Of a stretch of 64,000 nt of DNA, positions 49,322 through 60,851 are shown in pieces. Each line of letters opens with the position of its first letter. Within the stretch, counting starts at the first letter, position 1. Origin of the DNA: Escherichia phage vB_EcoM-LTH01. The DNA lies in sequence record PP430345. One strand, 5' to 3'. The notes under the pieces were generated by a model, which saw only the letters and a program-made list of their open reading frames with translations, was not told the DNA's origin and did no database searches. The translations under genes and the position numbers were made by a program.

Positions 49322-50278
49322 TTATCTTATCAACTCCCCTCGTGTTTCTGCAAGACCTAATTCGGTTACCCAGTCGCCTGTTTCGTAACCGCCCCTGTGT
49401 GTCAACTCAATGACTTTGTAAAAACCCTTAATGTATCGAGTGTTCAGGTATACTGTAGACTCAGGAAGGATCGCACCATTAAGGAGTGTAGTCACTGTCA
49501 AACCAACGTCCTCCTTTACATTCTTCTCCTTCTTCTTTGAAGTCTCTTTTGTATCTTTTTTCTTTTTCTTCTTCGAGATGTTTGGTTGCTTTAACGTTGG
49601 AGTGCCAACCATCCCGCCTTCCTCGGAGATCTCGAACATCACATTTGCAAACCTGGAGCCTTCTTTTGTCCAATAAACAGCACCATCCTGTATGGAAAAG
49701 GTAGATCCAGTATTTTTTGCAAGGTTTTCTAAGTTCTGTGCCGCATTACCAGTAAATGCCATAGAACTCTGCAATGTGTCAGCACTAAAAGGAACAACAC
49801 GCCCTTTGGGTAGCTTAAGATCAGAGATAAGGTCATTAAGAACCTGATTCACAGGCGTTCCCTTTCGGTAAGATCGGGAGGTTGTGGCGGTAGTCAAGTT
49901 TAGCGTTCCATCACCAAAAATAAACTTAGTCTCTCGTGTTTCCTCTGAGAAAGTATCCTCTACAAACTCGATTGTTCCAGAAAAGATAAGTTTTTCGTCA
50001 CCATTGTACCCCGCTTTTAAAAGGACAGCGAGGGATTCTCTTTGGTTTATACTGAGGTAGTTAACAACGTCATCGGAAAGGTTAAATACACTTACGTATC
50101 CCTTGTTAGGTTCCTTTGAGTTGTCTTTCTTTAACTGAAAGGTAATATGAAGATCCTTGATCTCATATGCTTCACCTTGGTTACTGTTACTGGCGTAGCG
50201 CTCAATGTTGACGGGCTTTTCACCAATATAAACAGGTCTTCCGATAACTAAAGTATATGTCCTTTCCAATGCCTTCAT
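49322..50278 (-). CDS. putative baseplate / tail protein (318 aa) with an internal Lys-rich tract
   Basis: ORF; KKKKKKDTKETSKKKEK segment. Confidence 0.5.
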   Translation of the reverse strand: MKALERTYTLVIGRPVYIGEKPVNIERYASNSNQGEAYEIKDLHITFQLKKDNSKEPNKGYVSVFNLSDDVVNYLSINQRESLAVLLKAGYNGDEKLIFSGTIEFVEDTFSEETRETKFIFGDGTLNLTTATTSRSYRKGTPVNQVLNDLISDLKLPKGRVVPFSADTLQSSMAFTGNAAQNLENLAKNTGSTFSIQDGAVYWTKEGSRFANVMFEISEEGGMVGTPTLKQPNISKKKKKKDTKETSKKKEKNVKEDVGLTVTTLLNGAILPESTVYLNTRYIKGFYKVIELTHRGGYETGDWVTELGLAETRGELIR

Positions 50279-51592: not shown

Positions 51593-54016
51593 TTATTGGT
51601 TACCACCCTGAGTGAGCAGGTTGATATTGAATCCGTTCTCTTCATCCACAATTGCACGGATATATTGACGAATCTCTCCACTCTTGATCTCAACGGTGAT
51701 CTTACCTTCAGGTGGTGCTGCTGGAGTTTCCAGAGGAAATCCGCTAGGGCGAATACCAGATGGAGTCGAGATAGTGTTAGGATCTACAGTTATGTCACGA
51801 GAGCCACCAAACAACTCTCTGAACACATCAGTTAACCCGACAGGTTGTGGAGTTACACCATATTGCTGCTGGAAAGCTGTTGCGTCAAGCCCTGCTCCAG
51901 CCAATCGGCTCTCTCCACTTTGGATAAAGCGGTCATTGATTTCTGACCCTGCTGAATAAAGCGTACCAAGGCCAAAAAGATTACCAAGCTTACCAAGTTG
52001 ACTGAATCTTCCAGCTACACTTGTCTTACCTGGGGTAGTTGCGCCACCAGAGGCTGTGGTGTTTGCACCAGTTGTGGTTTTTCCACCCGTAGCTAAATCT
52101 CCACCAAGGGTTCCACGAATCTCCTTAAGTGCACCTTTTAATCCTGCAATCTTAGCTAGGATATTAAACACTTTAGTTAGACCGCCGAGGAACAATCCGA
52201 TACCAAGGAGATAAGAACCCCAATCAAACACTTGACGAAGAGTATCACCTTCAACACCTATTTTCTTGAAGTAATAAGACACCACACGATCCAAAAGGAC
52301 AAGGTTATCATGTATTTCAAGAACCATGTCTGTAAATCCTTCAATTACGTTACCGAAGAATCTACCGATGGTGCTTGCAACGTTACCATTACTTGATAGG
52401 ATTGTAGCTAAGTTATTGAAAACTCTTGTCAGTTGTTCACCAAAGCCACCTTGGAATATTCTGTTTTGAAACTCTGCAAAAGTCTGAGTTAAACGCTGGT
52501 AAGCAACACGGTTACTTTCCAAAGCTTTATCCAGTGCACCACCTTTGTTAGCAGCCTCTGCATAGTATTTACCAACCAAAGGTATGATCTTGGAGGCTTT
52601 CAATTCACCATCTTCCATCAACTTCAACAATTTTGCAATGTCGATAGAGGTGTCGCCGAATGCTTCTTGAGTTGCTTTCAAGAATACCTGTAAAGAACCA
52701 GGAATTGCTTCAGCCAACTGACCCTTTAGTTCTTCAGCCATTACTTGACCTTTACCAAGGATCTGTTGAATTGCTGTAATGCCACGCTGATATCTTACAG
52801 GATCGACCTGAAGTGCGGTGGAATATTCAGAAAATGCACTAAATAATTCGTCTGTTTGAGATTTACTAATAACACCATCAGCAGAGATCGCTAACTGGGT
52901 AAATCCCTGCGATGCAGTTTTCAGATCCAAACCTAAACGGTATGCTTCGTCACGAACAAACTTAACACGCTGACCAGCTTCTTCTGCCGAATCAGAGATC
53001 AACAGAGATGTTGCATTGATTCCTTCGAAGAATTGACCTTGACGAGTTATTGATGCACCTGCTGAGAAAACTCCATATGCGGCAGTAGCACTTACCAAGC
53101 TGGAACGAACATCTTTAAGTGTGGAAGAGAAAGATCCAGCACTTGACTGTGCAGCACGGAATTGTCTTTCTAGCGCCTGTATGCTTTGACGATACTGCCC
53201 AGATGATAACGTACCAGCACGAAATTGTCTATTAAGATCTTCAATCCCACGACCTTCCGAGTCACGACCCAAAGCACCTGCATAACCACGACCATATCGA
53301 GAGGATAGACGAATACGTTGTTGTGCTGTAACATCATCAATACGGGCAGCAGCACGAGCAGCGCGGACACGTTCACGTTCCTGTTCTTGAGTTTGTTGCT
53401 TCTGCATTCTCTCTTTGATACGAGAACTACGTTGCATCGCTCTGTTTTGTGCAGCAATTAAATCAGGGTTGAATCGGCTATTAGGATCTCCAACAATACC
53501 TGACCCTGGCTCTCTGTTACCGCGAGATAATAATTGATTTGCAGCTTCCACACGTTGGATGTTGAAAGGCGGTAAAGGTGTCGCTGTACGGTTTGCAGAT
53601 CTTGCAGCAGCACGGGCAGCTTTCTCCTGTTCCTGATAGAACTTTCTCATCTCAGCAGAACCAGGGGATGCAGCCGTCAGGCTTTTAACCTGTTGTCGTA
53701 TTCTTGCAGCAGAAACCTTCTGAATTGCCTCTTTTGCCTTGGCTTCTTTCTTTGCCAGAGCAATACGATAATCAGTGGCCTTCTTCTCCTCACGCTTCCG
53801 AGTTTCTTCCAGACGTTTACTGACTAGTCTCATTTCACGAGCGGATTGTTTATAAGCCTCAGCAGGAGAATTCTTTCCGGCAGCGGTAGCCTCTGTTGAA
53901 GCCTTTTTCCATTCGTTGGAGAGTTTTCGGATCTCCTCACGAGCTTTTCGATAGGAACCTTTGTCAGTTTCAAATATGACTCGGTTCTTTGTTGTTGCAA
54001 TTACTTCAACAGCCAT
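51593..54016 (-). CDS. tail tape measure protein (807 aa)
   Basis: Long Ala/Gln/Arg-rich ORF immediately downstream of the frameshifted chaperone pair; Gly-rich C-terminal half. Confidence 0.7.
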   Translation of the reverse strand: MAVEVIATTKNRVIFETDKGSYRKAREEIRKLSNEWKKASTEATAAGKNSPAEAYKQSAREMRLVSKRLEETRKREEKKATDYRIALAKKEAKAKEAIQKVSAARIRQQVKSLTAASPGSAEMRKFYQEQEKAARAAARSANRTATPLPPFNIQRVEAANQLLSRGNREPGSGIVGDPNSRFNPDLIAAQNRAMQRSSRIKERMQKQQTQEQERERVRAARAAARIDDVTAQQRIRLSSRYGRGYAGALGRDSEGRGIEDLNRQFRAGTLSSGQYRQSIQALERQFRAAQSSAGSFSSTLKDVRSSLVSATAAYGVFSAGASITRQGQFFEGINATSLLISDSAEEAGQRVKFVRDEAYRLGLDLKTASQGFTQLAISADGVISKSQTDELFSAFSEYSTALQVDPVRYQRGITAIQQILGKGQVMAEELKGQLAEAIPGSLQVFLKATQEAFGDTSIDIAKLLKLMEDGELKASKIIPLVGKYYAEAANKGGALDKALESNRVAYQRLTQTFAEFQNRIFQGGFGEQLTRVFNNLATILSSNGNVASTIGRFFGNVIEGFTDMVLEIHDNLVLLDRVVSYYFKKIGVEGDTLRQVFDWGSYLLGIGLFLGGLTKVFNILAKIAGLKGALKEIRGTLGGDLATGGKTTTGANTTASGGATTPGKTSVAGRFSQLGKLGNLFGLGTLYSAGSEINDRFIQSGESRLAGAGLDATAFQQQYGVTPQPVGLTDVFRELFGGSRDITVDPNTISTPSGIRPSGFPLETPAAPPEGKITVEIKSGEIRQYIRAIVDEENGFNINLLTQGGNQ

Positions 54017-54073
54017 TTCGACTCCTCATAATAAAAATAAAGGCCAGAGTCTTTCGACTCCAGCCCTATTTAT

Positions 54074-54460
54074 TTACTTTCTCCGTTTTAACTGGGCCTC
54101 TTGTTGTTCCATTCGCTGGCGTTCGTATTCCTTCTCTTTCTCTTGAACACCTTCCAAATATTCTTGAATATCTATATATTCATTTTTCTTAAGAAGGTCT
54201 TCCATGTCCCCACTTTCAATAGAAAGTTCATTAACTCCCTTGAATTTCTCCATGACACGGAAATAAAGATAGTCATACCATTTCAGACTGGAGTTTTTCC
54301 TACAATACTCCAAGGCCCTTTCCACCGTACTCAGCGGCCTCAGGCTTCCGTCTGATCCAGTTGGTCCACCTTGCGAACCAGACCGAACTTCTGAAGGAGA
54401 TTTTCGATTGTCCCGAAACCGCTCTTGCCGAAAAAACAGCCGTAGTTCACCTGTATGATT
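54074..54460 (-). CDS. tail assembly chaperone, -1 frameshift extension (T-like part); the annotated GTG start at 54325 is probably not used independently
   Basis: Reading frame is open upstream to 54460 and overlaps the upstream chaperone ORF in the -1 frame; slippery T-TTT-TTC lies in the overlap. Confidence 0.55.
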   Translation of the reverse strand, partial: NHTGELRLFFRQERFRDNRKSPSEVRSGSQGGPTGSDGSLRPLSTVERALEYCRKNSSLKWYDYLYFRVMEKFKGVNELSIESGDMEDLLKKNEYIDIQEYLEGVQEKEKEYERQRMEQQEAQLKRRK

Positions 54461-54810
54461 TCAGCAAGTAACTTGAACAAATCTTCTACGTGACCATCAA
54501 ACACTTCATCGATATCAATCGGGCCGCCCATGTTGTCTACTTCAACGCCTTCCAGTAAAAGGTTGATAATTTCCAGACCACCTTCATCGATACGATCCAG
54601 AATATAAAGAATTGCGGTTGGGACAGCATCTTGAAAATCTTGTCCACCGGAAATAGCAGAGCCTGCCATTGTACCCAAAGGAACAGCTACCAGCTTGCCA
54701 ATTTTAGGCATATTACGGATAACTTGAGTAGGCGACCAATGATAAATCGTGAATCGCTTACCGCCGCAGAGAGTGATCTCTGTAGTCTTTTTAAATTTAA
54801 AACCTTGCAC
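54340..54810 (-). CDS. tail assembly chaperone (G-like, 156 aa)
   Basis: ORF between the tube and tape measure genes; contains the slippery heptamer. Confidence 0.6.
   Translation of the reverse strand: MQGFKFKKTTEITLCGGKRFTIYHWSPTQVIRNMPKIGKLVAVPLGTMAGSAISGGQDFQDAVPTAILYILDRIDEGGLEIINLLLEGVEVDNMGGPIDIDEVFDGHVEDLFKLLAEIIQVNYGCFFGKSGFGTIENLLQKFGLVRKVDQLDQTEA
54430..54436 (-). other. candidate -1 programmed ribosomal frameshift site (T TTT TTC)
   Basis: Heptamer in X-XXY-YYZ register of the upstream chaperone frame (codons TGT TTT TTC), inside the two-frame overlap. Confidence 0.55.
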
Positions 54811-54889
54811 GTTTACACTCCTGTGTCCACTTTGTTAATATAAATATGTCCATAGCGTGAGAAGGGCCTCATCCTTGAGGCTCACGTAA

Positions 54890-55372
54890 TTATTGATCCA
54901 GTCCGAGTATTCCACCGATACCAGCAGCAACGCCTTGAATCTGATCAGCGCTCAACTGTGCATCGACTACGCCAATTTCCCAGTCCATCTGACCTACTTC
55001 AGAACCGTAGGTCAGGTCTGGTTGACGTTGAATCCATCCGAAGGTGTTCAGAGATAGACCCTGAGAACCTTCAATCTGAATCGGGAAGTAAACAAGTCCG
55101 GTAAGACGGGCTTGCAACTGCCATTGAGAGAGATAACCGTTCCATACAGAGGTATTCTGCAAAGAGATGGTCACTACGCCGGAGTTATCACGGACGATAG
55201 CAGAACTCACTTCACCATCTACACCCGACAGCGGAGTAATGTTATCATTGTTACGAGAAACAACGACTTTCGTATCAGCGGCGAATCCAGAAACACGTTG
55301 ACCACCGATAAAGATCAGGACTTTGGCTGGGTCATACGCCTGGAGACTAATTAACTTAGGATTCAGTGCCAT
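54890..55372 (-). CDS. putative tail tube protein (160 aa)
   Basis: Size and position directly downstream of the putative sheath gene and upstream of the chaperones. Confidence 0.5.
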   Translation of the reverse strand: MALNPKLISLQAYDPAKVLIFIGGQRVSGFAADTKVVVSRNNDNITPLSGVDGEVSSAIVRDNSGVVTISLQNTSVWNGYLSQWQLQARLTGLVYFPIQIEGSQGLSLNTFGWIQRQPDLTYGSEVGQMDWEIGVVDAQLSADQIQGVAAGIGGILGLDQ

Positions 55373-55375
55373 CTA

Positions 55376-56791
55376 TTACACCCCTACAGAAGAAGTAGTG
55401 AAAGAAGTCTGAGTGCTTTGGGTCGTAGTTTGAGGACGATCCAGAACAACAGCAGCGCGAATTTTAACGTAGTGCAGGGAGTTGTTGTAAACTACTTCAA
55501 CTTTAACATCACGCAGGATACGGTTAGCCAAGTCGTTGCTTGGAATTTCAGCACGACGAGGAATAGTAATGATTGGATCGTAGCTCACACGGTTCACTGT
55601 ATCATAACCAGTCAGAATACCACCGTTACGAATACCGATGTTGATTGGATTATTGAACAGGATAGAACGCAGAACCGGAAGATCTTCATCACTCATCTTC
55701 ATGGACTGGCCTTGATCAGAACGACGCTTCATGTATCCGAATACAGATTCTTCCATGCGGAATTTCAGCCAATGGGAGAAACGAATAACGTCAACATACT
55801 GACCGCTGGAGGTACGACCTTCGATGTAGCTGTTAGTGCCGTACATTGCACGATAGATGTTTGCGTTACGTCCCCAAGCGTTGCTACGCTGAGTTTCGGA
55901 GATGGTAGAAGGCTTCATGCCAGGCATTGTCTTCAGGTGAATAGAGTCACCGTAAGAAGGATCGTTGGCAGCCATTGCACCGATAACAGAACCTTCGGTG
56001 AATTCTACATCCGCTTCTTTGTCGTAAGTACCCAGAGAGTTGTAACCCAGAGCTTTCAGTGTATCAAACACGGAAGCGCTTTGGTTAGCTGCTGCCAGAG
56101 CATCGCTGTCACTGGAATTATATACGTGCAGTTTATAATTGGCTTGTGCAAATTCAGCCGCTGCAACGATATCTGCATCAGAACGTTGTTCGTGAGACAG
56201 GAAGTACCAGTTGTGGTTTTCAGCAAGTACCTGCGGAAGAACAGTTGCAACAGTTTCAACAGAGGTGTTTACAATCTTGTAATTACCTTCGCCTTTTCCT
56301 ACGCTGATAATTTCTGCGGATTGTACAACAACGACGACACCACCTTCAACAGTTGCAGTAACGCGACCAGCCAAATCCGCATCGTTGTTAATGCCTTCTG
56401 CCAGAGCGGTTGCGATCTGACCAGGGGTGTTTCCAACGTTAACCAAAATGGTGATTGCTTTAACAACCTTATTGATGGTAATATTTACAACAACACGTTC
56501 GGTATTGGTAGTGCCAGTAAAGTCGATTCGAGAACCCGACATAGACATACGACCAATAGCCACCAGTTGCGGAGCAAAAGAACCGCCAAATGCATTGGAT
56601 GCAAACTGATGCGCTGCGGAACCAACTGCAAATCCATCACCAACCAGACTTTCCAAAGACCCGTACAGACGGAGACGTTCAGGGAAGTTGTTGTGTACTG
56701 CTAAGAACATTGGGGTTTCAAACCCTACGGTATCAATAGGTTGAGTGCCAAGAGTTACCTCGACGTCAACTACCTTATCTTCATAAGCCAT
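55376..56791 (-). CDS. putative contractile tail sheath protein (471 aa)
   Basis: Size and gene order (sheath, tube, chaperone pair, tape measure); AGAGGA ribosome-binding site. Confidence 0.55.
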   Translation of the reverse strand: MAYEDKVVDVEVTLGTQPIDTVGFETPMFLAVHNNFPERLRLYGSLESLVGDGFAVGSAAHQFASNAFGGSFAPQLVAIGRMSMSGSRIDFTGTTNTERVVVNITINKVVKAITILVNVGNTPGQIATALAEGINNDADLAGRVTATVEGGVVVVVQSAEIISVGKGEGNYKIVNTSVETVATVLPQVLAENHNWYFLSHEQRSDADIVAAAEFAQANYKLHVYNSSDSDALAAANQSASVFDTLKALGYNSLGTYDKEADVEFTEGSVIGAMAANDPSYGDSIHLKTMPGMKPSTISETQRSNAWGRNANIYRAMYGTNSYIEGRTSSGQYVDVIRFSHWLKFRMEESVFGYMKRRSDQGQSMKMSDEDLPVLRSILFNNPINIGIRNGGILTGYDTVNRVSYDPIITIPRRAEIPSNDLANRILRDVKVEVVYNNSLHYVKIRAAVVLDRPQTTTQSTQTSFTTSSVGV

Positions 56792-59153: not shown

Positions 59154-60851
59154 TTAATAGACATTACCGGTTTGAATAGTTTGTGTAGCTCCGTCAAAAA
59201 TACAAATAGAATATATTGACAATCTCCCACCTGTGTCACTTGAAGAAGATTTATTCATCGTTGCTGTTATCCAAACCCTCCAACAACTTCCGTCGTTATT
59301 GTCTGTAACAACAAGGTGCATTGTATCTGGATACCCTACAGTCGCCGACGCATTTTCAACATAAGCAACAGTATTGCTCAATGTTGCATTACTTACCCTC
59401 CCTGTTTTTATTCTATTAATATCCGTGTAGTTAGCCGTCAAGTACCATCCAAAATTTATTTGTCTGGAAGAAGACGATGTTCCTGCGGAGAAACCTACCT
59501 TAACTTGACTAGCCAAACCTGCGGCGTCAATAATAAGCCTTACATTACCATTATTAGTACCGGGTAAAGGTAACCACATTTTTTTAGTCCCAGTAGGTGT
59601 ATTATAAACCCCAGCTAAGGTAGGAGTAGCAGCTGGACCTACATCTCCTTTATCCCCTTTGTCCCCTTTCTCGCCCTTAGGACCTTGAGGGCCTATCATA
59701 CCTGCCGGACCTTGTGGTCCAATAGCACCTGTCTCCCCCTGAGGGCCAGTCGGACCCCTGATACCCTGAGGGCCAGCTATGCCTTGAGTGCCTTGAGGGC
59801 CTGCTGGGCCGATATCTCCTTTATCTCCCTTAGGACCTTGCGGACCCTCTGGGCCAGTTGGTCCTGCATCACCCTTCACTCCCTGGGGACCTTGTGGACC
59901 TTGAGGACCAGTCGGACCTATATTACCTTGAGGGCCAGTTGGACCCGTTGCACCAATTGGACCTTGAGGACCTTCAGGGCCTGCTGGACCTTCAGCGCCT
60001 ATATCCCCTTTAGGTCCTTGTGGTCCCATAGGACCCTGAGGTCCTTCAGCACCTTGATCACCTTTGGGACCAACAGCGCCTGCAATCCCCTGAATACCCT
60101 GGGGACCCTGAGGGCCTGTTGGCCCTTGTTCCCCCCTTGCACCTTGATCACCTTTTGGACCCTGCGGTCCTTGTGGACCTGTTGGCCCTTGAGATCCTTC
60201 TAAGGCTAAGATAACCCAATCTTCATTTGTACCAGGTTCTGAGCCAATACTGGCAGAACTGGCAAAATACGTTGAACCATTGTAAGAAACCGAATCATTT
60301 TCAGAATAAGATTCCTCAGCGTCCCAAGTACCTTTGAAAGTCAAACCAGCAGGGCCAACCTCACCTTTTTCCCCTTTAGGGCCTGTAAGTCCGATCGGTC
60401 CTTGCGGACCTTCTGCTCCAGTCTCACCCTTAGGACCTTCAGGGCCAACAAGTCCCTGAGGACCTTGCTCACCTTTTTGTCCTTGTGGCCCTTGCGGACC
60501 CATAGGTCCTTGAGGGCCAACAATACCAGCTGCCCCCGCTATACCTGCGGGACCTTGTTCTCCTTTATCACCCTTAGGACCTGTAAGGCCACGGACACCT
60601 TCATCTCCTTTGGGACCAATAGGACCTTGCGGTCCAATATCCCCTTTTGGACCCTGAGGGCCAGCAGGTCCAACTGGACCTTGTTCTCCCTGAGGTCCGC
60701 GAGGACCAGTGTTACCAACATCACCTTGTTCTCCGACACGGGAAAACAAATCTTTAAACAAATACCTCTTTCTTGCATTAAGATCGTAAACGGCAGTCCC
60801 GAAATAAACCCCGCTGTGATCTCCCGTAATACCTTTAGCTGTAGAAGGCAT
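59154..60851 (-). CDS. collagen-like fibre protein (565 aa) with an embedded carbohydrate-binding-like module and a C-terminal globular domain
   Basis: Long Gly-X-Y tracts ([20 protein letters not shown]...), interrupted by [39 protein letters not shown] (W...Y..GD.V.YNG..Y...W pattern), then ~150 aa without collagen repeats. Confidence 0.7.

Follow-up and report, generated by a model that had tools for sequence, protein, structure and literature searches.

The −1 frameshift in the tail assembly chaperone genes G and GT of phage lambda was reportedly described by Levin, Hendrix and Casjens in 1993 and by Xu, Hendrix and Duda in 2004; its slippery heptamer is G_GGA_AAG and it is generally described as needing no stimulators. 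In lambda the tape measure protein is the binding partner of both G and the G portion of GT, and the major tail protein is that of T; G and GT occur at a molar ratio of about 30:1, and neither is found in the virion (PMC5009743). Here we describe a locus of comparable design in Escherichia phage vB_EcoM-LTH01 (record PP430345), within a stretch of 64,000 nucleotides (nt), the whole of which is hereafter denoted the window. In this locus a tail assembly chaperone gene (G) is very probably decoded in two ways, by standard reading and by a programmed −1 shift at a U_UUU_UUC heptamer into an overlapping open reading frame (ORF; denoted T). As in lambda, two ORFs that overlap are placed after the major tail or tube gene and before the tape measure gene; differences from lambda are the U_UUU_UUC heptamer, the contractile tail of a myophage that has a sheath gene upstream, membership of the chaperone in the Phage_TAC_15 family, and the candidate stimulators on either side of the proposed shift site.

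The slippery sequence of phage P2 is a T-run heptamer, and its E/E+E′ pair resembles the present locus in that a contractile-tailed phage carries a −1 shift in a chaperone gene upstream of the tape measure gene; the protein family differs, however, and P2 is a small temperate phage. The shift efficiency in P2-like phages is 2- to 3-fold above that in lambda (PMC5009743). A conserved −1 shift at a GTTTTT motif was argued in 2025 for Vandenendeviridae (Pakpunavirus Adele) and Andersonviridae, both described as relatives of the Vequintavirinae (PMC12846349), and a frameshifted ‘tape measure chaperone’ has been annotated in the FelixO1-like phage Moogle (PMC4319497). Like the present phage, these are large lytic myophages in which the locus lies between the tube and tape measure genes and the downstream piece is routinely mis-annotated as a hypothetical protein. 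The 2025 analysis of the chaperone locus covered the Vandenendeviridae and Andersonviridae only, not the Vequintavirinae or Stephanstirmvirinae (PMC12846349); in contrast to those two families, the T run in the present group may be preceded by C as well as by G, and the full heptamer and its register are defined.

The layout of the locus resembles that of the −1 signals of Escherichia coli dnaX and of IS911/IS3-type elements, which have a Shine–Dalgarno (SD)-like sequence 9–14 nt 5′ of the shift site (here a candidate at 10), an X_XXY_YYZ heptamer and a stem a few nt 3′ of it (here a predicted one of 12 base pairs (bp) after 6 nt). Unlike in dnaX and the insertion sequence (IS) elements, the predicted stem would enclose some 67 nt as its loop and involve sequence around the 0-frame stop, rather than forming a compact hairpin, and the stimulators are predicted only and not universal. 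The dnaX shift runs at about 50%, whilst a few percent is expected for the chaperone ratio. The functional dnaX stem has 11 bp (PMC5009743), and U_UU.U_UU.C, which some IS elements employ, ranks with the more efficient heptamers in E. coli (PMC4066793).

Anatomy of the overlapping reading frames

All genes of the locus lie on the minus strand of the window. The two ORFs, the proposed shift site and the only candidate for a separate T start are placed as follows (lengths of proteins in amino acids, aa):

54340–54810, minus strand: tail assembly chaperone ORF G, 156 aa, with a GTG start, AGGAG 7 nt upstream of it, and a TGA stop at 54342–54340.
54430–54436, minus strand: slippery heptamer T_TTT_TTC (codons 125–127, Cys-Phe-Phe), the proposed −1 shift site.
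54074–54460, minus strand: ORF T in the −1 frame, open from 54460, with a TAA stop at 54076–54074; 118 aa if decoded from 54430.
54323–54325, minus strand: GTG in the T frame, a possible start of its own, with a weak GAGG 12 nt upstream.

The original prediction had placed a T-TTT-TTC heptamer in register about 30 codons before the stop of the 156-aa ORF and had held the −1 frame to be open back to 54460 across that site, and both points are borne out. TTTTTTC occupies 54436–54430, with its first T as the third base of codon 125 (TGT), which gives the register T_TTT_TTC, and it stands 29 codons ahead of the TGA stop of G. The last −1-frame stop before it lies at 54463–54461 and is followed by 128 codons without a stop up to the TAA; 11 stops fall in the −1 frame within the first 116 codons of the G gene. 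The heptamer is the sole one in register where the −1 frame overlaps G. A tandem −1 slip at this position would yield a product of 245 aa, composed of chaperone residues 1–127 and 118 residues of the −1 frame, for which the predicted tryptic junction peptide is LLAEIIQVNYGCFFR; the predicted peptide specific to G is LLAEIIQVNYGCFFGK.

The ORFs of the window hold 35 in-register X_XXY_YYZ heptamers (Y being A or T) per approximately 18,750 codons, and the chance of finding any such heptamer within the 40-codon overlap is, for the window alone, about 7%, and about 0.4% if TTTTTTC alone is considered. Given the local density of stops, a 128-codon open −1 stretch has a probability of about 3e-6, the 40-codon overlap alone one of about 0.02. 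Among the real genes of the window, only this heptamer has a −1 continuation that extends at least 30 codons past the 0-frame stop. The case against chance that can be made from the window alone is only moderate; judging from the sequence comparisons below, chance is excluded by conservation across relatives.

Another heptamer, A_AAA_AAT, is in register at about codon 186 of the gene at 49322–50278 (minus strand), within the Lys run KKKKKKD of a 318-aa homologue of the CR3 ‘baseplate hub’. Its −1 continuation runs for 77 codons and ends inside the gene, and this heptamer is probably incidental.

Conservation of the heptamer and of the open −1 frame

The relatives compared were 14 diverged GenBank phages, 24 IMG/VR loci and 8 metagenomic contigs. 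The GenBank set represents six Vequintavirinae genera (rV5; CR3 and phiTE; SSE121 and 4MG; KB57; Av-05; pEp_SNUABM_01), together with Acinetobacter phage ABPH49, three Stephanstirmvirinae-like phages, Aeromonas phage 2L372X and a Vibrio phage, and chaperone protein identity to the window spans about 27–100%. T_TTT_TTC is present exactly, in register and at the homologous position, in 36 of the 37 distinct relatives. The sole exception is the most distant relative, Vibrio phage 193E37-1 (OX241576), which carries A_AAT_TTT in register at codons 142–144 or thereabouts with an open −1 frame; at the level of sequence this looks like a switch of slippery sequence inside one chaperone family.

The two Phe codons of the heptamer are TTT followed by TTC in 31/31 distinct genes, compared with a TTT:TTC count of 59:60 in the neighbouring genes. 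The codon before them is TGT, AGT, TCT, CCT or GCT (encoding Cys, Ser, Pro or Ala), with the third-position T constant, and the terminal C of the heptamer is likewise constant, though the −1-frame residue that it begins may be Arg, His or Gln. Where two sequences have an identical residue, they also have an identical codon at a frequency of 0.97–1.0 at the three heptamer codons, versus 0.52 gene-wide.

Every relative has a −1 frame that opens a few codons ahead of the heptamer and runs without a stop through the whole of T, and in every one the +1 frame is closed. A +1 shift was rejected on the latter ground. An error of homopolymer sequencing was also rejected, since dozens of independent assemblies agree on the T6 run and the tail read in the 0 frame is conserved.

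The T part is coding and has no conserved start of its own

The −1-frame product has a recognisable layout. After the shift site comes a conserved basic RxxRFR motif, followed by a variable linker rich in Gly, Ser, Asp and Pro and by a conserved T domain of about 80 aa. A short way past the stop of G, the T part enters the conserved block KNSSLxW[FY]D[YF]L. The T ORF matches phrog_10409 (E=1.1e-21) and phrog_8811. T is under purifying selection, with nonsynonymous divergence (dN) of 0.12–0.33 and saturated synonymous divergence (dS); dN/dS is 0.06–0.07 where computable. This selection, like the anatomy of the frames and their conservation, is directly observed.

T is thus a coding ORF, and across 29 distinct relatives it has neither a conserved start codon nor a conserved ribosome binding site. 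In 15/29 of these relatives the −1 frame contains no ATG, GTG or TTG anywhere from the slip site up to the conserved block of T, so that independent initiation cannot be the general route to the T domain. In the KB57-like phages the first possible T start would leave 43 of about 90 residues, and those relatives that do have a T start codon usually have it without a Shine–Dalgarno sequence. Taken together, the heptamer, the open −1 frame, the missing T starts and the coding status of T support the −1 shift, and the programmed frameshift proposed in the original prediction is, on this comparative evidence, upheld.

The chaperone domain and the position of the proposed shift

G matches PF21822 (Phage_TAC_15) with 78.6 bits against a cutoff of 22 (E=7.9e-22) over profile positions 1–127 of 127, and phrog_3840, tail assembly chaperone, with E=2.9e-63. 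An AlphaFold2 model of the 156-aa chaperone has a predicted local distance difference test score (pLDDT) of 67 and a predicted template modelling score of 0.60, with a folded core at residues 6–127; from residue 128 the pLDDT is below 50, such that the tail (128–156) is of low confidence. Since the modelled core ends at residue 127, the shift would fall exactly at the core end, and G and GT would share the whole domain and differ in their tails. For the 245-aa fusion, single-sequence AlphaFold2 gave a pLDDT of 39.8, which is unusable. Structural similarity of the G core to the solved tail assembly chaperone folds of HK97 (2OB9) and YqbN (3KLU) was not significant.

Candidate stimulators flanking the heptamer

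Two elements around the heptamer, an SD-like sequence and a stem with its two arms, are candidates for modulating the shift:

54447–54452, minus strand: SD-like AGGTGA, candidate upstream stimulator, 10 nt 5′ of the heptamer.
54412–54423, minus strand: 5′ arm of a predicted 12-bp stem, AGCGGUUUCGGG, beginning 6 nt past the heptamer.
54333–54344, minus strand: 3′ arm of the predicted 12-bp stem, CCUGAGGCCGCU, including the G stop codon UGA (54342–54340).

The original prediction had proposed a check for a stimulatory RNA structure downstream of the heptamer, and the outcome is mixed: a stem is predicted, although only in some clades and not by every method. In the window, AGCGGUUUCGGG (54423–54412) would pair with CCUGAGGCCGCU (54344–54333) over 12 bp after a 6-nt spacer. 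The 111-nt segment has a minimum free energy of −42.8 kcal/mol (z=−2.7), and the stem duplex reaches −21.9 kcal/mol, compared with −13.6 ± 2.0 kcal/mol in dinucleotide shuffles of the downstream sequence, 0/300 of which were as low. Across 14 sequences (the window clade together with the Certre-, Seuna-, Mydo-, Avuna- and Henunavirus clades) the outer 6 bp are paired in 92.9% of cases, as opposed to 18–54% when the partner is slid by 1–3 nt. Two pairs are compensatory (A-U to G-C or the reverse), and at least 5/6 outer pairs form in 17/30 distinct sequences, with the arm variants AGCGG:CCGCU, GACGG:CCGUC and GGCGG:CCGCC. At synonymous sites the arm codons GGT and CCG do not vary, even though CCG is seldom used for Pro here; synonymous-site conservation stands at 30/32 for GGT and at 22/32 for the TTC of the 5′ arm. 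The closest relatives, UPEC06, A7_1 and W70, differ by 0–3 substitutions per 150 nt, too few for testing the stem.

The upstream candidate, AGGTGA (54452–54447), has a predicted pairing energy with the 3′ end of 16S rRNA of −8.4 kcal/mol, set against a gene background with a mean of −3.8 and a 5th percentile of −8.55. Many relatives carry GGAGGT or GAGGTGA at the equivalent place, and the element is strong in about half. For −1 stimulators the SD-like sequence is spaced 9–14 nt 5′ of the shift site (PMC5009743), a range within which the 10-nt spacing of AGGTGA falls.

Several observations weigh against a stimulatory role for these elements. Covariation in the stem amounts to only about 2–3 independent events. 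RNAalifold, run on the 14 sequences, missed the long-range stem and predicted nothing beyond a trivial U-run hairpin, and no Rfam family matched at 54000–54900. The stem is not present in the rV5-like, ABPH49-like and Stephanstirmvirinae lineages, nor is a strong SD-like element in the CR3-like phages, KB57, 2L372X and the loci L045 and L048. Balancing these points against the predictions for the window, we consider that the shift may be tuned by AGGUGA 10 nt upstream together with the 12-bp stem 6 nt downstream, at a likelihood of about an even chance or somewhat less.

Aeromonas phage 2L372X (NC_048770) has, instead of the long-range stem, a compact hairpin that starts 5 nt after T_TTT_TTC and is formed by GGCGCUGAACCAG and UUGGUUCAGGAAGCGCU; this local hairpin is predicted at −15.9 kcal/mol in 45 nt.

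The two candidate elements appear to be distributed in a complementary manner. All distinct stem-less sequences (7/7) carry a strong SD-like element, of −8.5 kcal/mol or stronger, so that none is without both, and several relatives with a strong stem have no SD-like element. The complementarity rests on about four independent lineages only, and it is a lead, not a result. Rather unlikely, though worth stating, is the broader proposal that the frameshift signal is modular and evolvable, with an invariant U_UUU_UUC and two interchangeable stimulators, and with a stem that encloses the whole dual-coding overlap; if this were true, the G:GT ratio would be kept constant through stimulator swapping. 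The 3′ arm of the stem holds the 0-frame stop and, in this phage, also the only SD-like sequence before the T-frame GTG, and the stem might therefore couple termination of G to shifting; it might also suppress stray initiation of T.

Proposed decoding mechanism and alternative explanations

We infer the shift itself, its efficiency and the functions of the two proteins from the features described above, and envisage decoding of the G gene in the following manner. Most ribosomes would read codons 1–156 and stop at the UGA (54342–54340), releasing the short chaperone G. A minority would slip with UUU in the P site and UUC in the A site, both tRNAs re-pairing one base back on UUU_UUU; these ribosomes would then read 118 codons of the −1 frame to the UAA at 54076–54074 and release the 245-aa GT. 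GT would thus consist of the whole folded G core (1–127), the RxxRFR motif, the Gly/Ser/Asp/Pro-rich linker and the T domain. If lambda G/GT is a guide, coating of the tape measure protein would fall to the G parts and recruitment of tube subunits to the T domain, and neither protein would be present in the virion.

A number of findings count against decoding by a −1 shift, or at least fail to favour it. A natural in-frame fusion of G and T was not found when the 245-aa product was used as a query against 5.8 billion proteins; all 45 matches were 153–161 aa long and covered approximately 53% of the query. The T part, used as a query against 1.84 billion representatives, gave 11 matches of 59–138 aa, none of them joined to a G domain, and independent support for G and T as one functional unit is consequently unavailable from natural fusions. 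Conservation of the 0 frame hardly differs from that of the −1 frame in the overlap zone (identity 0.39 versus 0.41), such that this zone alone cannot tell which frame is read. The GTG at 54325 and its weak GAGG could permit some independent initiation of T in the window. In the literature, we found no experiment on a fusion protein for this phage or for any rV5-like phage.

The same G–T fusion would arise by transcriptional slippage, if RNA polymerase added one U at the T6 run and the resulting U7 mRNA were translated normally. The homopolymeric T run is indeed the conserved core of the site, and the insertion of one U equals a −1 ribosomal shift in its product, so that sequence alone cannot formally separate the two routes. 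However, every distinct sequence has a run of exactly six, with G or C before it and invariably C after it, and no longer run occurs, though TTC to TTT would be synonymous. The long run of A or T that marks productive slippage in bacterial transcription, of about 9 nt (PMC5009743), is found in none of the sequences, which have T6 throughout. Moreover, the run always stands in the X_XXY_YYZ register, and the candidate flanking elements, which would act on the ribosome, lie at canonical spacings (SD-like 10 nt 5′, stem 6 nt 3′). We regard transcriptional slippage as very improbable. It is more improbable still that no recoding occurs and that T is an independent small gene with a translation start to itself (GTG 54325 in the window), the heptamer and the overlap being incidental. 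A start of this kind, with GAGG 12 nt upstream, is real in the window, as the original prediction had allowed, and every GenBank or RefSeq record inspected has a separate small ‘hypothetical protein’, with gene callers predicting such ORFs; as a general route to T it nevertheless fails. The GTG is not conserved, the GAGG is weak, too distant and placed within the 3′ arm of the predicted stem, and the relatives without any start upstream of the T block, as well as the truncation that would result in the KB57-like phages, have been described above. Annotated starts are inconsistent between records, with T lengths of 39–122 aa, as are those of gene callers (59–138 aa), an inconsistency that counts in favour of the shift. 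Finally, a separate T gene leaves unexplained both the nucleotide conservation of T_TTT_TTC and the always-open −1 frame.

The least probable of the alternatives places the −1 shift, instead of or besides that at the heptamer, at an in-register U_UUC tetramer (GGT TTC, codons 131–132, 54418–54415). The conservation of GGT and TTC at synonymous sites noted above, and the open −1 frame at this position, would be compatible with such a site, and only two other tetramers rival U_UU.[U,C] in proneness to shifting in E. coli (PMC4066793). Tetramers, though, require a strong and correctly spaced stimulator and are about 10-fold below the best heptamers (PMC4066793), and the present one sits within the 5′ arm of the predicted stem and so is without such spacing. 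The stem and the RFR motif encoded in the −1 frame account for its conservation just as well, and the rV5 clade has TTA in place of TTC. The two sites predict different junctions, namely ...GCFFRQER for the shift at the heptamer and ...GCFFGKSGFRDNR for that at the tetramer. The tetramer lies 15 nt 3′ of the heptamer, at a point where three constraints overlap (tetramer, stem arm and RFR motif).

Genomic context of the locus

The window is 94–98% identical to Escherichia phages UPEC06, W70, A73, A5-4 and A7_1 (unclassified Vequintavirinae), and by sequence it is that of an rV5-like myophage (Vequintavirinae). The neighbouring genes and a terminator-like element are placed as follows:

55376–56791, minus strand: tail sheath gene, 471 aa; phrog_205, tail sheath, E=6.5e-104.
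54890–55372, minus strand: tail tube gene, 160 aa; PF11681 (Phage_Tube_PhiTE in newer Pfam labels), E=2e-9, and phrog_280, E=1e-38.
54040–54067, minus strand: terminator-like hairpin with a 12-bp stem, between the T stop and the tape measure start.
51593–54016, minus strand: tape measure protein gene, 807 aa; PF20155 (TMP_3), E=4.5e-14, and phrog_5255, E=1.1e-290.

Matches to Pfam and PHROG families for all four genes confirm the order sheath, tube, chaperone and tape measure that had been predicted beforehand, and the homologues of the sheath gene in CR3 and phiTE are labelled tail sheath by RefSeq. The two overlapping ORFs, G and T, stand between the tube and tape measure genes, as in the G/GT class. 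In phiTE (NC_020201, 2747–3847) two extra genes, phiTE_226 (49 aa) and phiTE_227 (316 aa, phage JSE protein-like), separate the T ORF from the tape measure gene, from which it follows that the chaperone and the tape measure genes need not adjoin.

The hairpin at 54040–54067 has a 4-nt loop and is followed by the T tract TATTTTTATT, which extends to about 54030; the rV5 and phiTE records carry annotated terminators at the equivalent place. The transcript of the sheath, tube and chaperone genes may thereby be partly separated from the tape measure gene.

Further upstream, the gene at 59154–60851 (minus strand) encodes a 565-aa protein in which long collagen-like Gly-X-Y repeats flank central and C-terminal non-repeat regions. 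The UPEC06 homologue is labelled a collagen triple helix repeat protein, and the protein is probably a fibre.

Annotation status and significance

The records inspected comprised 17 feature tables and the feature names under about 60 further matches, from rV5-like, phi92-like and related phages. In these GenBank and RefSeq records we found neither a joined coding sequence nor an annotated G–T fusion; the annotated T ORFs range over 39–122 aa and are called hypothetical protein, or the region is left intergenic. Individual records vary in how they treat the locus: UPEC06 (MW250786) starts the chaperone at an internal ATG, giving 123 aa, rV5 ORF50 overlaps ORF51 by 109 nt, and the T region of ESCO5 is unannotated. 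Our search of the literature found no report of the shift for rV5-like, Vequintavirinae, PVP-SE1 or phi92-like phages, and the paper on the rV5 genome and proteome is silent on it.

The proposed shift is thus newly described for this phage group, although the mechanism itself is known and will be unsurprising to the specialist. With the shift recognised, annotations would show the proper product of 245 aa and lose a spurious small gene, in a group in which some phages are candidates for therapy. Comparison of the relatives provides a clean data set for studying how frameshift efficiency is set, with one invariant heptamer and variable flanking elements. For the biology of these phages, the finding would extend the nearly universal G/GT strategy, with no new mechanism, to another lineage of large myophages.

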